Shown: positions 38,225 through 62,634 of the stretch, one piece after another
How the letters are laid out: the number at the start of each line of letters is the position of its first letter
How positions within the stretch are numbered: position 1 is the first letter of the stretch
Origin: an uncultured Granulosicoccaceae bacterium
GTDB lineage: Bacteria > Pseudomonadota > Gammaproteobacteria > AKS1
Length of the DNA stretch: 64,000 nt
Assembly (NCBI GenBank): GCA_964542925.1
Contig: CAZIWG010000003.1
Span: forward strand, 10,763 to 74,762
Reading direction: 5' to 3'
The notes under the pieces: model-generated
What the model was told of the DNA's origin: nothing
Databases searched by the model: none
The model's input: only the letters and a program-made list of their open reading frames with translations
Made by a program: the position numbers and the translations under genes

Positions 38225-38268
38225 TCCAAAAACCGCTTTCTAACCACAAATACCGTGAAAGCGCGCTG

Positions 38269-38274
38269 ATTATA
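38269..38274 (-). promoter_or_regulatory. Candidate -10 element (TATAAT) with GC-rich discriminator upstream of rimP
   Basis: Minus strand reads GGCTATAATCAGCGCGC, a perfect -10 hexamer followed by the GC-rich CAGCGCGC. No convincing -35. Confidence 0.25.
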
Positions 38275-38488
38275 GCCCCGAGGACGGTAAAACGCTAGTA
38301 CTTCATGGGTTTACTGGGTATTTTCTGGCTATTTCACGTAAGACAGAAGAATTGTTCTAAATAAATAGCCGCGATTTTACTCAAAATCAGCATAATTCCT
38401 TTAATATCAATGAGTAATTAAAAAAATATCACCTCAATATAAAAGACATCTCGATAGAGAAGCTTTAAGATCATCTAGTTAAGATGAT

Positions 38489-39529
38489 TCAAGCAGTATT
38501 TATTATCGTGGCCGAATCAGGTATGTCGTTTATACTGCGGTAGTGTTGTAAAGTCATGCGTACACCATCACTAAAAGAAGTGAACTTGGGTAATTGAATT
38601 AATCCCCTAAGTTTACTGATATCAGAAATATAATCTCCTGTTTCCACCTGCCTGTAATCATCAGGCCATGGTACATTGTTTATTGTAACGTCCTTAACTT
38701 GACTGGCAATCGTTGCAGCAGCTTCAGATAAACTTATACCGCTACTCCCACCTAGATTGAATATCTGATTCAGACATTTTCGAGTTGCAGTTGCAGTAAG
38801 AATTGCAGAGACAGTATCATTTATATAGATATAATCACGTTTCTGATCACCTTTCCCGAAAATAGAAATTTCACGGCCTTCCGCTGCATATTGAATGAAT
38901 CTATTAATAATTCCGTATCCGCTAGACTCTACTTTTTGATGAGGGCCATATGGGTTAGATATTCTAAAAATCATGTAATCAAGTTTTCCTACCTGAGAAA
39001 ATAGTCGCAGATAATTTTCAACTGTAATCTTATTGACCGCATACATGCTCATTGGTAGTAAAGGATGAGATTCATCAACAGGAAGATAATCAGGTTTCCC
39101 ATATACCAGACGGGTACTTGAAAAAACAATTAGTGGCTGCGTCATCGTTTTAGAACATTCGTGAATCAATCTCATATGTATTCGACATTCTGCATCAAGA
39201 CTATCTTCAGGGCTCCGATTGCTCTCTACTGAAGAAGAAACACCCGCAAAATTAAATATAATATCCTGATTTTTTATCGCTTCACGTAATAGTGAAGTAT
39301 CACCAATGTCACCATGAAATACCCGATGCAATTCACCACCAGCACGAGGTCGTTTACGGCGACTAATTATTGAAACTATTGCACCTAACTGCTGAAGGGC
39401 ATGTATTGTGTTAACGCCCAGAAAACCATCTGCACCAGTGACTAGCACTCTCATATCCTTAAAGTGCTCAGATACTAGTTTGTTTTCTGTAACCCAGAAG
39501 CTATTAAGTTTGGTATTAACCATATGCAT
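38489..39529 (-). CDS. NAD-dependent epimerase/dehydratase (extended SDR)
   Basis: VLVTGADGFLGVN (Rossmann GxxGxxG) and SMYAVNK (YxxxK). The start could instead be the ATG at 39454 (MRVLVTG...). Confidence 0.85.
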   Translation of the reverse strand: MHMVNTKLNSFWVTENKLVSEHFKDMRVLVTGADGFLGVNTIHALQQLGAIVSIISRRKRPRAGGELHRVFHGDIGDTSLLREAIKNQDIIFNFAGVSSSVESNRSPEDSLDAECRIHMRLIHECSKTMTQPLIVFSSTRLVYGKPDYLPVDESHPLLPMSMYAVNKITVENYLRLFSQVGKLDYMIFRISNPYGPHQKVESSGYGIINRFIQYAAEGREISIFGKGDQKRDYIYINDTVSAILTATATRKCLNQIFNLGGSSGISLSEAAATIASQVKDVTINNVPWPDDYRQVETGDYISDISKLRGLIQLPKFTSFSDGVRMTLQHYRSINDIPDSATIINTA

Positions 39530-39552
39530 AAACCATCGATTCTCAGTTAAAT

Positions 39553-40509
39553 CTATTTACCATCTTTCCCAAGTATTACAACTACCCATGGATTTATTGG
39601 AGATCCTCGCAGAAATTTAAACACTGTTCGTGATACGAGCCAAAATGAAAATCTGACAGGAAGTCCAAACAGATACCCTAATAAATTATGCTTACTGCGA
39701 ATAAACCCCCAATAATTTTCAACAGGCAGAGAATCAGAATAATTACACCCTGCTTCAAAAAACATATTTTTATAATCACCAATTGATAATAAAAATGGAT
39801 CAGTTGGCCTAGATGGGCGAATTTTATAACTCCCTTCATCACGCCCATGAAATATGTCGAAAGGGAAATAACGATTTGGACTACTGACAATAATTCGACC
39901 ATCAGGCTTTAGTACACGCGTCATTTCTTTGGCAAGTGCCAAGCGATCTTCTTTATACGTTTCAGAGACGATAAAACTATCTCCAACGACACCAACATGT
40001 GGAAAAACACAACCACAATAAACCGCGTCAAACGACTCATCATCAAAGGGTAAATGTAACCCATTTGCCATCAATAATCGCTCGTGATAAGAACGTCTTG
40101 GCCATACGTCAGTTCTATTACCATTATCAATCCCGATACAGTTATAACCATCATCCGTAAGCAAATCAATATCAACACCCGTTCCACATCCAACTGAAAG
40201 CAGCCGTTTAGGCGAATTGGATTTTGGCCATATTTTATTAAATAACGGAATCCAGTAATTATTAGTCAGATCTTCGTTTGAACGCTCTTCATACAACATT
40301 AAGCTTTCATCTGTCTCATCTTCAAAACGACCTCCAACAACTAGATCTCTAAACCCTAATGTAATATTAAAATCCTCATTGCAATCAAGACATTTAATAA
40401 CGGTTGTTTCTTCCTCTAGCCGTCCATGACAACAAGGGCATACAAGTTCAACTGGGCATGGCATTAATGTCTTGATAGTTTCATTCACTGATTCAGTCCC
40501 TATATTCAT
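39553..40509 (-). CDS. Class I SAM-dependent methyltransferase with N-terminal Zn-ribbon (Trm112-like)
   Basis: N-terminal CPCCHGRL...IKCLDCNEDF zinc-ribbon. MT motif I LLSVGCGTGVDIDLL, then DAVYCGCVFPHV...LKPDGRIIV. Confidence 0.8.
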   Translation of the reverse strand: MNIGTESVNETIKTLMPCPVELVCPCCHGRLEEETTVIKCLDCNEDFNITLGFRDLVVGGRFEDETDESLMLYEERSNEDLTNNYWIPLFNKIWPKSNSPKRLLSVGCGTGVDIDLLTDDGYNCIGIDNGNRTDVWPRRSYHERLLMANGLHLPFDDESFDAVYCGCVFPHVGVVGDSFIVSETYKEDRLALAKEMTRVLKPDGRIIVSSPNRYFPFDIFHGRDEGSYKIRPSRPTDPFLLSIGDYKNMFFEAGCNYSDSLPVENYWGFIRSKHNLLGYLFGLPVRFSFWLVSRTVFKFLRGSPINPWVVVILGKDGK

Positions 40510-61192: not shown

Positions 61193-61870
61193 ATTCTCTC
61201 CTTAACTCTAAAATCTTCCGTAGCTTTACTAAATGACTACTTAATCACCAAATCAATTAGGCTTCCTAATTTAAGACAAGATGGCAATTCCCCCAAATTC
61301 AAACTAGTACTTTTGTATTACAAACAAACCTAACAACATAAAATAGAGCAAACCCCAAGCTAATGCCCTTATTTTACAGATGCACTGCAGTTAGGTTATC
61401 AACAAGATAACTCAACAACAAAGACATCTTCCTTCCAGTATATTGACGTAAGAAACGTACAGCGAAAACCCAATAAAATTTGGCAAATAAGATAGATATG
61501 AAAAAAGTAACGCCACATGCGTACCACTTTTAGTAAGTACTATCCTTTGCGTATTTCCCCGATGCGTTCCACACACCTATATATCGTTACTATTATTTTT
61601 TTTATGAACGACTATAACTAAACTCTACCAGTAGTTATGAAGGATCACAAACAAAATCTATCTTAATATTCACATATTACTTAACTAATTTACTGGGATA
61701 TTCTACTAAAGTTGAGCTTAATCTGAGCCTACCGTTTAGCCCCAAAATAACAACACTACTTTTACTCTACAGTTCGTAGATTTCCATTAATTATGCTCAT
61801 CTACATACAACATTAGCCTCGGCACCAACCCATCTTATTTTCTGACAACCTTCTCATAAAACTAGCACCA

Positions 61871-62512
61871 TGCCACTATTAAAATTTCCAGATCAGTGAT
61901 CAATAATCTCGTGCTTAGCCTCTGCAAAAGAATGGTAGCCAGTTTGCGGTATCCATTCTGATTTTAAACTTTTAAAAAATTGTTCCATCGGTGAAAATAA
62001 CATCGCCCAACCAATCGGTTTACGCGCAAATAAATCCATAACGATCGCAAGATAAGCCCAACGTTTACCTACCCAGATGTAAGTGACATCACCACACCAA
62101 ACTTGATTCGGTACATCAATATCAAATTCGCGGTTTAGTCGATTTGGGATCACAATGTGTTCTTATTTGGCCTCCCTGTAGGCATGTTTAGGCTGCTGAC
62201 AGCTTTTAAGACCACAGGCCGCCTCAAGGTTACCCACACGATAACGGCTCAGCGCCATGCCACGCGTCGTGGCAATATCAGTAATCGTTCGTGCGCCAGC
62301 TGAATCATTACTCTCATGAAAGATAGTTTTCACAACGGCCATTTCATTTTTTAATTGTTGAACCCACTTATCCGTCGTCGGCTTGCCGACATTCATCGCC
62401 TCAGCCGCCTCACGGATTGAATAACCTTGGTCAACCACCAAATCCATTAGTGTGGGCCAAAAATGGGCCCGATTTGGGCTAAAATGGGCCATAGAAGAAA
62501 TCGAGCAGGCAC
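61871..62512 (-). mobile_element. Decayed IS3-family insertion sequence (fused OrfA'-OrfB' remnant); boundaries approximate
   Basis: One reading frame runs from 62492 to 61893, broken by a TAA at 62163-62165. It encodes an OrfA HTH fragment ([33 protein letters not shown]), an OrfB N-terminal fragment ([25 protein letters not shown]) and an rve-core fragment ([37 protein letters not shown] then ...[12 protein letters not shown]). The segment expected to carry the second catalytic Asp is deleted. Total is about 0.6 kb, versus 1.2-1.5 kb for an intact IS3 member. TG... ends are guessed only. Confidence 0.7.
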
Positions 62513-62541
62513 AAAAAAACCAGTCTGCGCTAACAGACTGG
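62513..62541 (-). terminator. Rho-independent terminator directly downstream of tRNA-fMet
   Basis: Minus strand reads CCAGTCTG-TTAGCG-CAGACTGG-TTTTTTT, an 8-bp perfect stem starting 16 nt after the tRNA CCA end. Confidence 0.8.
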
Positions 62542-62557
62542 CTTGATTGATAAAAAT

Positions 62558-62634
62558 TGGTAGCGGGGGCAGGATTCGAACCTACGACCTTCGGGTTATG
62601 AGCCCGACGAGCTGCCAGACTGCTCCACCCCGCA
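62558..62634 (-). tRNA. Initiator tRNA-fMet (anticodon CAT), metY-equivalent
   Basis: The reverse complement reads TGCGGGGTGGAGCAGTCTGGCAGCTCGTCGGGCTCATAACCCGAAGGTCGTAGGTTCGAATCCTGCCCCCGCTACCA. It is 77 nt with an encoded CCA and near-identical to E. coli tRNA-fMet as I recall it. It has three consecutive G:C pairs closing the anticodon stem (GGG/CCC) and a non-Watson-Crick 1:72 position. Confidence 0.93.

Follow-up and report, generated by a model that had tools for sequence, protein, structure and literature searches.

In the 64,000-nucleotide window of contig CAZIWG010000003.1, which originates from an uncultured Granulosicoccaceae bacterium, a gene cluster predicted to encode a surface polysaccharide pathway lies between the gene for the initiator tRNA-fMet, the equivalent of metY, and the rimP-nusA-infB operon. 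This interval most probably represents strain-specific accessory DNA in a recombination hotspot, which directly follows the 3' end of the initiator tRNA and precedes the rimP promoter. The initial annotation of the window had described the tRNA and an intact rimP-to-pnp operon as being split by about 24 kb, and this layout was borne out, with a tRNA-to-rimP distance of ~24.2 kb. The accessory interval extends from ~62512 down to ~38489, begins ~45 bp past the tRNA 3' end, just beyond the tRNA terminator, and consists of the remnant of an IS3 insertion sequence (IS), a 700-bp non-coding stretch and 17 open reading frames (ORFs; 61192 to 38489). The tRNA side of the island and the core flank contain the following features:

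62647-62675, minus strand: putative promoter-like block TTGTAG-17 nt-TATAGT upstream of the tRNA, read from the sequence
62558-62634, minus strand: initiator tRNA-fMet (metY equivalent), tRNA-Met(CAT) by ARAGORN, Rfam RF00005 with 61.8 bits
62517-62544, minus strand: intrinsic terminator directly 3' of the tRNA, from a terminator scan
~61893-62450, minus strand: IS3-family transposase remnant with a helix-turn-helix/OrfA piece and an rve piece, internal deletions and frame breaks
61193-61892, minus strand: 700-bp non-coding leader upstream of the first island gene, no ORF above 54 amino acids (aa)
29845-38184, minus strand: rimP-nusA-infB-rbfA-truB-rpsO-pnp, the core flank outside the island
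38184-37726, minus strand: rimP, with RimP_N and C-terminal domains
37715-36204, minus strand: nusA
36173-33642, minus strand: infB
between infB and rpsO, minus strand: rbfA and truB
32240-31971, minus strand: rpsO
31932-29845, minus strand: pnp

The tRNA-Met(CAT) is the single tRNA identified by ARAGORN in the whole window. It is identical to E. coli metY, an annotated initiator, at 69 of 77 positions, and it has kept the GGG/CCC anticodon stem with three G:C pairs and the unpaired 1:72 position, here U.U. The same tRNA sequence is present in the closest relative, L001 (L numbers denote the related loci), and in most of the other close relatives. Of the promoter and terminator assigned to this tRNA in the initial annotation, the terminator hairpin at 62544-62517 was recovered by the scan, and the putative promoter block is conserved in L001 and has a -35 hexamer too weak for listing in a consensus scan.

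The rimP side was surveyed by a NusA scan with one genome per species, which resulted in 80 loci, 75 of them informative; the clade of the window is judged from relatives labelled Sulfuriflexus sp. or Gammaproteobacteria metagenome-assembled genomes (MAGs). For L001, with 98% aa identity in NusA and ~82% DNA identity, the tRNA was found directly upstream of rimP, and the site is thus empty: L001:1-390 aligns to window positions 62945-62553, covering the 3' end of a DsrE gene and the tRNA, and L001:521-10837 aligns to 38334-28131. In total, four empty sites were identified (L001, L091, L099 and L100), in which the order sigma54-activator/DsrE/tRNA-fMet is followed by rimP. The rimP-to-pnp operon is collinear in the window, L001, L091 and L002, the last being a Sulfuriflexus sp. 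MAG with an occupied site. Among the 75 informative gammaproteobacterial loci, the tRNA-fMet lies at most 500 bp from rimP in 51 (median gap 176 bp), 0.5-2 kb away in four and 4.6-5.6 kb away in three, and none was found within 2-9.5 kb in the remaining 17; two surveyed Alteromonas genomes have 4.7-5.6 kb between the two genes. The arrangement is fixed in E. coli, where 5420 of 5426 complete genomes have argG-metY-rimP-nusA as an unbroken stretch. The adjacency in 51 of 75 loci therefore implied that the tRNA-rimP linkage is ancestral, though it has been lost repeatedly.

At the junctions, homology to L001 runs through the tRNA and includes the T-run and GTGCC after the terminator hairpins, which differ between the two; it ends at ~62513 and resumes at ~38334, and blastn homology with both L001 and L002 resumes at 38334-38337. 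The tRNA-proximal hairpin of the window also differs from that of the other empty-site relatives, and the same 'allele' is present in L098, which shares the T-run and GTGCC with the window and L001. On the rimP side, three elements were identified:

38335-38488, minus strand: relic of the ancestral tRNA terminator and spacer at the right junction, homologous to L002:9213-9350
38185-38334, minus strand: conserved rimP upstream block, comprising a TATAAT box at ~38275 (GGGGCTATAATCAG) and a leader that holds a terminator-like hairpin
38205-38227, minus strand: the terminator-like hairpin GGAGTGGGCC...GCGCCCATTTTTTG in the rimP leader, from the scan

The local alignment of the relic block with L002:9213-9350 had a score of 29, which was reached by none of 500 shuffles. 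The terminator and spacer that follow the tRNA in L001 also aligned with L002:9213-9350 at a score reached by none of 500 shuffles, and a three-way alignment was made. Of the relic hairpin, L002 has an intact copy and the window a degraded one. The terminator and spacer of the empty-site genomes have remained beside rimP in the window and in L002, and the cargo thus lies between the tRNA 3' end and the displaced terminator. For the left junction, the independent assembly L081 (SRR6439370) was shown to span window positions 62584-59011 at 99.86% identity, including the tRNA, the IS3 remnant, the leader and the genes for a polyprenyl-phosphate sugar-phosphate transferase (PGT) and a short-chain dehydrogenase/reductase (SDR); a chimeric left junction is therefore ruled out. 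L084 matches the window at 100% identity from the sigma54-activator through DsrE and the tRNA into the beginning of the IS remnant, and together with L081-L083 it represents independent assemblies identical to the window.

The rimP upstream block is conserved in L001, L002 and L091. Conservation in L001 and L002 extends to its hairpin, which lies ~20 nt ahead of the start codon and recalls the NusA-sensitive attenuators of the E. coli operon. Since this block with its TATAAT box and leader hairpin has been retained, and since even the empty-site relatives have a terminator right behind the tRNA, a functional impairment of the operon by the island is unlikely. The island had been described as breaking the operon; it has split the linkage of tRNA and rimP, but it has probably not decapitated the operon functionally.

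The composition of the island was compared with the rest of the 64-kb window as core reference. The GC content is 0.379 for the island, 0.423 for window positions 1-38334 and 0.448 for the operon. The per-gene GC content at third codon positions is 0.293 in the island versus 0.365 (Mann-Whitney p = 2.7e-6), and the distance of 5-kb tetranucleotide profiles to the non-island profile is 19-22 for the island versus 9-17 for the rest, with no overlap. The shift, which had been judged by eye in the initial annotation, is real in all three measures but modest, amounting to ~4.4 GC points. The view of the interval as an acquired island is supported by the empty sites, the deviant composition and the metY-rimP adjacency in the majority of the surveyed loci; each of these findings runs contrary to one of the three outcomes that the initial annotation had named as refuting it.

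Outside the island, a gene for an EptA/EptB-type phosphoethanolamine transferase (7572-9206, plus strand) has a GC content of 0.349, the second-lowest among the tabulated non-island genes. It is located between SulP/STAS sulfate-permease paralogues (5706-7406 and 9210-10937) and may be a second small acquired insert.

The tRNA side was surveyed by a metagenome scan with the DsrE-like neighbour, which resulted in 29 loci sharing sigma54-activator/DsrE/tRNA-fMet. In these loci, the tRNA is followed by different contents:

L091, L099 and L100: rimP directly
L098: 1.1 kb with a 208-aa ORF
L093: 4.2 kb with Fic and UPF0149 genes
L096, L088 and L086: hybrid histidine kinases and PP2C-type response regulators (~12-kb signalling cluster)
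L110: a related signalling set
L087: an unrelated polysaccharide cluster (SDR, hexapeptide acyltransferase, FkbM methyltransferase, GT4 glycosyltransferase)
L095: a contractile injection system (sheath, gp19 tube, Pvc16_N, AAA)
L085: a peptidase/HerA/MscS/HipA set

The signalling genes of L096, L088 and L086 are the gene set identified upstream of rimP in L002. At least six states of the tRNA-rimP site were seen among the related loci, and the spacer is a multi-cargo hotspot in this clade. A confirmed right flank is available for the window, L093, L098 and the empty sites; for the signalling cluster, confirmation comes only from the overlap of L096 with L002. The cargo of L095 (L095:11356-19885) comprises a LuxR-type response regulator and an eCIS/PVC-like contractile injection system.

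Many tRNA-linked pathogenicity islands encode a P4-type integrase. By Pfam and NCBIfam, no tyrosine or serine recombinase was identified among the 17 island ORFs and the IS remnant, and no integrase was found in the cargo of L002, L008, L020, L045, L050, L058, L065, L078 and L080, or in that of L085, L087, L093, L095, L096, L098, L109 and L110. A direct repeat of the tRNA 3' end, for which the initial annotation had suggested a search, was not found in the window by a mismatch search (25 nt, up to 3 mismatches). A shuffle-controlled local alignment of the rimP junction to the tRNA 3' end did not exceed the background (448 of 1000 shuffles reached its score), and the junction of L002 was likewise not significant. 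The signature that had been called classic for tRNA-linked islands is therefore partial: tRNA adjacency, IS debris and a composition shift are present, but an integrase and a flanking repeat are absent from the window.

Such repeats have been identified in relatives. In L085 (twice), L086, L087, L095 and L096, a unit of 100-150 nt, designated the X unit, lies behind the tRNA and its terminator. It starts with an inverted copy of the T-arm and closes with 19 nt that repeat the tRNA 3' end (AATCCTGCCCCCGCTACCA), after which a further terminator copy is located. The 19-nt repeat is exact in most X units, with one mismatch in the second unit of L085 and in a further unit in L110, which has no terminator copy after the repeat. 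The units are located as follows:

L085:4888-4984 and L085:5025-5177: X units of L085
L086:10762-10910: X unit of L086
L087:10771-10870: X unit of L087
L095:~10780-10922: X unit of L095
L096:10778-10931: X unit of L096
L110:10733-10883: X unit of L110

The X units are mutually homologous, and their predicted consensus fold consists of a 10-bp closing stem, which pairs the two ends of the unit, and small hairpins in which three pairs show a compensatory change. No Rfam family other than tRNA was found for them, and in the window they matched only the tRNA itself. Judged from their sequence, the repeats in the relatives are marks of site-specific recombination at the tRNA 3' end. It is doubtful, though conceivable, that the tRNA 3' end and terminator serve as the attachment site of a cassette-capture system with a recombinase acting in trans, in which the X units would be recombination modules or mobilisable remnants.

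In L088, the tRNA-fMet (L088:10714-10790) is inverted relative to its DsrE neighbour, with an X-like unit between the two, which is consistent with a site-specific inversion at the hotspot. Among more distant relatives, L008 contains a 1.1-kb insert with a cyclic nucleotide-binding (cNMP) regulator, bounded by a tRNA 3' repeat with two mismatches (L008:1856-3081), and tandem partial tRNA copies were identified in two distant gammaproteobacteria (L058:8221-8431 and L073:1772-2103), so that signs of recombination at this tRNA extend to all three. A Candidatus Muproteobacteria MAG has a tRNA-fMet upstream of rimP that is interrupted at its anticodon loop by an insert of ~650 bp (L039:5386-6112); this insert matched the group I intron family RF00028 with 44.7 bits (E 5.6e-10), just below the gathering score of 50.

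We infer that site-specific recombination at the tRNA 3' end gave rise to the architecture of the hotspot. Such an origin would explain both the position of the cargo, exactly between the tRNA and the displaced ancestral terminator, and the exact 19-nt repeats of the relatives, each with a terminator copy. The recombinase would have been supplied in trans or lost, the repeat in the window would have been erased by decay and IS3 activity, and cargo may later have been exchanged between strains via the conserved flanks. Several observations weigh against the interval being accessory DNA in such a hotspot. Neither the island nor any of the examined cargos contains an integrase, and the rimP-proximal junctions of the window and L002 have no significant tRNA-derived repeat. 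The difference in GC content is modest, and AT-richness is common in polysaccharide clusters for reasons besides recent transfer. For L085, L087, L095 and L110, only the tRNA side is present on the contig, so that a rearrangement instead of an insertion is possible there. In addition, the closest empty-site genome belongs to a different species (~82% DNA identity) and is too distant to date the acquisition.

Homologous replacement is a credible, although less probable, explanation, in which the exopolysaccharide (EPS) cluster would have arrived as a long fragment from another strain by a double crossover in the conserved flanks, sigma54-activator/DsrE/tRNA on one side and rimP-nusA on the other, and no site-specific recombinase would have been involved; this is the mode by which O-antigen and capsule 'replacement' islands are exchanged. 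The window, which contains no integrase and no flanking repeat, is in agreement with this possibility, as are the high conservation of the flanks among many co-occurring strains and the different polysaccharide cluster after the same tRNA in L087; replacement flexible islands are also established for surface glycans (PMC4898812). However, homologous replacement alone leaves unexplained why the cargos of the window and L002 lie exactly between the tRNA 3' end and the displaced terminator, and why relatives carry exact tRNA 3' repeats; moreover, glycan clusters are a minority among the alternative cargos, in better agreement with an additive hotspot. Replacement is compatible with site-specific capture at the tRNA as a later step, and for the most recent acquisition it is a live alternative.

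The remaining explanations are less probable still. If the cluster had been present at this site in the ancestor of the clade and had been deleted in L001, L091 and the other empty sites, the decay of the relic terminator would reflect an old occupied state, the breakpoint common to L002 and the window would be accounted for, and excision would have regenerated a clean tRNA-terminator junction. Such a secondary loss is nevertheless improbable, given the tRNA adjacent to rimP in gammaproteobacterial outgroups, the deviant composition of the island, the unrelated cargo at the same breakpoint in L002 and a homologous cluster that has a different context in another organism. A delivery by IS3, as a composite transposon or by IS3-driven co-integration with a coincidental tRNA adjacency, would account for the IS3 remnant at the extreme left edge of the island, abutting the tRNA terminator. 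It is very improbable, since the remnant (NCBIfam transpos_IS3, E 7.8e-8; PF00665 rve on an 86-aa ORF) is a single, heavily deleted copy, and the rimP side has neither a further IS nor an inverted repeat; a second copy was found neither in the window nor as a match in the related loci, IS-free cargos occupy the same site in many relatives, and the remnant is missing from the homologous cluster L113/L115. The comparison of the IS region and the 700-bp leader with all loci likewise revealed no similarity; for the leader, Rfam gave no match and no ops/JUMPStart element was found, matches to this element across the window being at chance level (17 versus 20 expected). An assembly artefact, with chimeric joins at the repeated tRNA of a metagenome-derived contig, is scarcely credible. 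The source does appear to be an environmental assembly, and the contigs of several relatives end in or just after this tRNA (L015, L029, L070, L071, L074, L090 and L092), but L081 and L084 independently span the left side, and a chimeric join would not produce the homologous relic of the ancestral spacer that is present at the right junction. Contig ends at this position are expected, because a multi-copy tRNA adjoins a strain-variable region there, and short-read MAGs therefore under-sample the hotspot.

For the 17 genes of the island, the Pfam and NCBIfam assignments agreed with the gene list of the initial annotation, with additional work being required for the 440-aa Wzx candidate and a 736-aa protein listed as a glycoside hydrolase (GH). 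From the tRNA side to the rimP side, the genes are:

60440-61192, minus strand: initiating PGT, small Bac_transf type, PF02397 E 5.5e-60; TIGR03025 E 5e-74, under its curated cut-off
59428-60408, minus strand: SDR NAD-dependent epimerase/dehydratase 1, PF01370 E 7e-44
58287-59408, minus strand: radical SAM/SPASM enzyme, PF04055 and PF13186, NCBIfam matches all under their cut-offs
57342-58229, minus strand: bacterial tyrosine kinase (BY-kinase)-like ATPase, TIGR01007 with 122.4 bits versus a cut-off of 108
56141-57319, minus strand: GT4 glycosyltransferase a, PF00534 E 5e-43
55040-55762, plus strand: PIG-L family de-N-acetylase, PF02585 E 6e-16, orthologue in L113
53914-55035, plus strand: GT4 glycosyltransferase b, PF00534 E 5.5e-34
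53175-53828, minus strand: methyltransferase 1, PF08241 E 6.5e-7
50959-53169, plus strand: secreted clan GH-A-like TIM-barrel protein (736 aa, by structural model) with two C-terminal domains resembling carbohydrate-binding modules (CBM11/22-like)
49754-50572, minus strand: outer-membrane polysaccharide export protein (OPX), Wza-like short form, PF02563 and SLBB
48352-49674, minus strand: putative divergent Wzx-type flippase, 440 aa, ~12 hydrophobic segments by hydropathy
46665-48134, minus strand: polysaccharide co-polymerase (PCP), Wzz and GNVR, no kinase domain, PF02706 and PF13807; TIGR03007 and TIGR03017 under their cut-offs
42887-46690, minus strand: BNR/Sortilin-Vps10 repeat protein, 1267 aa, PF15902 E 2.6e-58; NF045728 (F510_1955 family glycosylhydrolase) with 305 bits versus a cut-off of 175
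41407-42933, minus strand: Wzy_C-domain membrane protein, putative polymerase, PF04932 E 2.8e-19
40539-41429, minus strand: GT2 glycosyltransferase, PF00535 E 5e-24
39553-40509, minus strand: methyltransferase 2, PF08241 E 1.5e-15
38489-39529, minus strand: SDR NAD-dependent epimerase/dehydratase 2, the last island gene, PF01370 E 1.2e-47

The island contains the PGT, PCP, BY-kinase-like ATPase and OPX expected of a Wzx/Wzy-dependent EPS or capsule locus, and from the family assignments we infer that the cargo is such a pathway, complete in appearance. The two SDR enzymes would provide nucleotide sugars, the small PGT would start the repeat unit on undecaprenyl phosphate, and the two GT4 enzymes and the GT2 enzyme would extend it. 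Decoration would be carried out by the PIG-L deacetylase, the two methyltransferases and the radical SAM/SPASM enzyme. The divergent Wzx would flip the repeat unit and the Wzy_C protein would polymerise it, while export would involve the Wzz-like co-polymerase, the separate and possibly degenerate BY-kinase-like ATPase and the OPX protein. Outside the cell, the secreted GH-A/CBM protein and the 1267-aa BNR protein may act on the polymer.

The 440-aa Wzx candidate has no Pfam match of its own; homologues at 24-73% identity carry PF01943/PF13440, and homologues are named O-antigen export protein. For the 736-aa protein, no sequence match was found in Pfam, NCBIfam or PDB. An AlphaFold model built from 47 homologues (pLDDT 88) resembled GH53 galactanases and GH5 mannosidases in Foldseek (TMt 0.5-0.6) and CBM11 (0.6-0.7), so that the predicted structure is a TIM barrel of clan GH-A joined to two CBM-like domains; N179, E183 and E292 are invariant across the 47 homologues. 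The BY-kinase-like ATPase has an Asn instead of the Walker A lysine (GRRFEGNST), because of which its kinase activity is doubtful. It contains no C-terminal tyrosine cluster, and its N-terminus shows a sub-threshold MshE-type c-di-GMP-binding motif (MshEN-like, 22.7 versus 38 bits); by these sequence features it may be a regulatory pseudo-kinase. The Wzy_C domain is common to O-antigen ligases too, and the conservation of the island protein (223 homologues; 40-53% identity across phyla) is atypically high for a Wzy polymerase. The missing Walker A lysine speaks against the pathway as drawn, and most NCBIfam matches of the island being under their curated cut-offs speaks against reading specificities from the enzyme names.

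Homologues of Wzx and Wzy_C with 73-78% identity were identified on one contig (L113/L115), which shows synteny with the window over the stretch that begins with PIG-L and ends with SDR 2 (55762 to 38489, ~17 kb) at 61-83% aa identity. The cluster in L113/L115 has a GC content of 0.455 versus 0.537 in its flank. It was considered as a second occurrence at the same site and rejected, since it is followed by a PEP-CTERM protein and acs (acetyl-CoA synthetase) and not by rimP. Its different setting and its low GC content there count in favour of a mobile cluster. The PEP-CTERM protein has 181 aa (L115:14714-15259) and ends in the sorting signal VPEPSTWLLLLGGLVMLLGLRIRKET, a feature that may point to a connection with exosortase systems of which the window itself shows no trace. 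Five genes beside the IS remnant, coding for GT4 a, the ATPase, the radical SAM enzyme, SDR 1 and the PGT, are outside the syntenic block, and the island is therefore a mosaic.

More distant versions of the core were identified in Roseateles (Betaproteobacteria) and in contigs assigned to several phyla. The conserved order is GH-like protein, Wzx, PCP, BNR giant, Wzy_C, GT2 and methyltransferase, with an OPX, an SDR and a GT4/PIG-L pair nearby. The loci with the island core are:

L117 (Roseateles sp., JBFUMU010000032.1): 1-20607
L118
L113/L115

The gene content had been regarded as atypical and possibly specifying an undescribed EPS. It is not idiosyncratic, since its core belongs to a cross-phylum cluster family, but no paper describing this family was found, nor one combining Sortilin, exopolysaccharide and Wzy.

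The locus resembles several known systems. For the EPS loci of the XrtA/PEP-CTERM type, TIGR03007, TIGR03027, TIGR03097 and TIGR03088 were the best NCBIfam models for the PCP, OPX, Wzy_C and one GT4 protein, TIGR03018 was second-best for the ATPase, and in L115 the homologous cluster is followed by the PEP-CTERM protein; however, the island scores are far under the curated cut-offs and no exosortase was found among the island ORFs. In tycheposon-type islands of Prochlorococcus and in CIME-like att-flanked remnants, arrays of partial tRNA repeats are located downstream of an intact tRNA, with cargo free of recombinase genes. Unlike in these systems, no recombinase-bearing element was seen at any examined locus.

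For the additive flexible genomic islands of Alteromonas, tRNA-Met has been identified as one of the two most used hotspots, and partial tRNA repeats mark some cassettes (PMC4898812). As in the site described here, these are site-directed hotspots adjoining a tRNA, with different cassettes in nearly every strain (Lopez-Perez and Rodriguez-Valera, PMC4898812). Here, however, the tRNA is the initiator gene upstream of rimP-nusA-infB, the window has kept no repeat, and its cargo comprises an entire glycan pathway of 22 kb, a kind of content that in Alteromonas characterises the 'replacement' islands. With the latter and with O-antigen and capsule loci, the site shares a strain-variable, AT-rich Wzx/Wzy cluster between conserved genes and another glycan cluster in L087, but most of its alternative cargos are non-glycan, and empty sites exist, so that the locus is dispensable and not always occupied. 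In E. coli, the initiator-tRNA gene metV is a top island target (PMC7545054), as in PAI-metV of strain CFT073 (PMC2907695). PAI-metV is likewise an island beside an initiator-type tRNA-Met gene with deviant composition and IS debris; it differs in its target, which is metV of the metZWV cluster and not metY, and the window contains no integrase. The remark in the initial annotation that such an insertion target was not known had thus been overstated, in view of the metV islands (PMC7545054, PMC2907695) and the tRNA-Met hotspot of Alteromonas (PMC4898812). No paper was found that joins metY, a genomic island and nusA.

The island is an ordinary, well-documented type of tRNA-linked flexible genomic island, and current concepts of such islands are unchanged by these findings; some residual novelty lies in the attachment-site-like units of the relatives and in the widely conserved EPS cluster family. 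The metY-rimP linkage, near-invariant in E. coli, is broken in about one third of the surveyed gammaproteobacterial genomes. The analysis also flags a cross-phylum EPS cluster family with a GH-A/CBM protein, Wzx, PCP, BNR giant, Wzy_C, GT2 and methyltransferase. If the tentative reading as a cassette-capture system were true, multi-kb cargo such as glycan pathways and injection systems would be repeatedly loaded, swapped and, as in L088, inverted upstream of the essential rimP-nusA-infB genes. The locus provides a junction-resolved example of how surface-polysaccharide diversity is generated in uncultured relatives of sulfur oxidisers, in which a single spot beside the initiator tRNA is occupied, depending on the strain, by an EPS pathway or another glycan cluster, by signalling modules, by a toxin cassette or by a contractile injection system.

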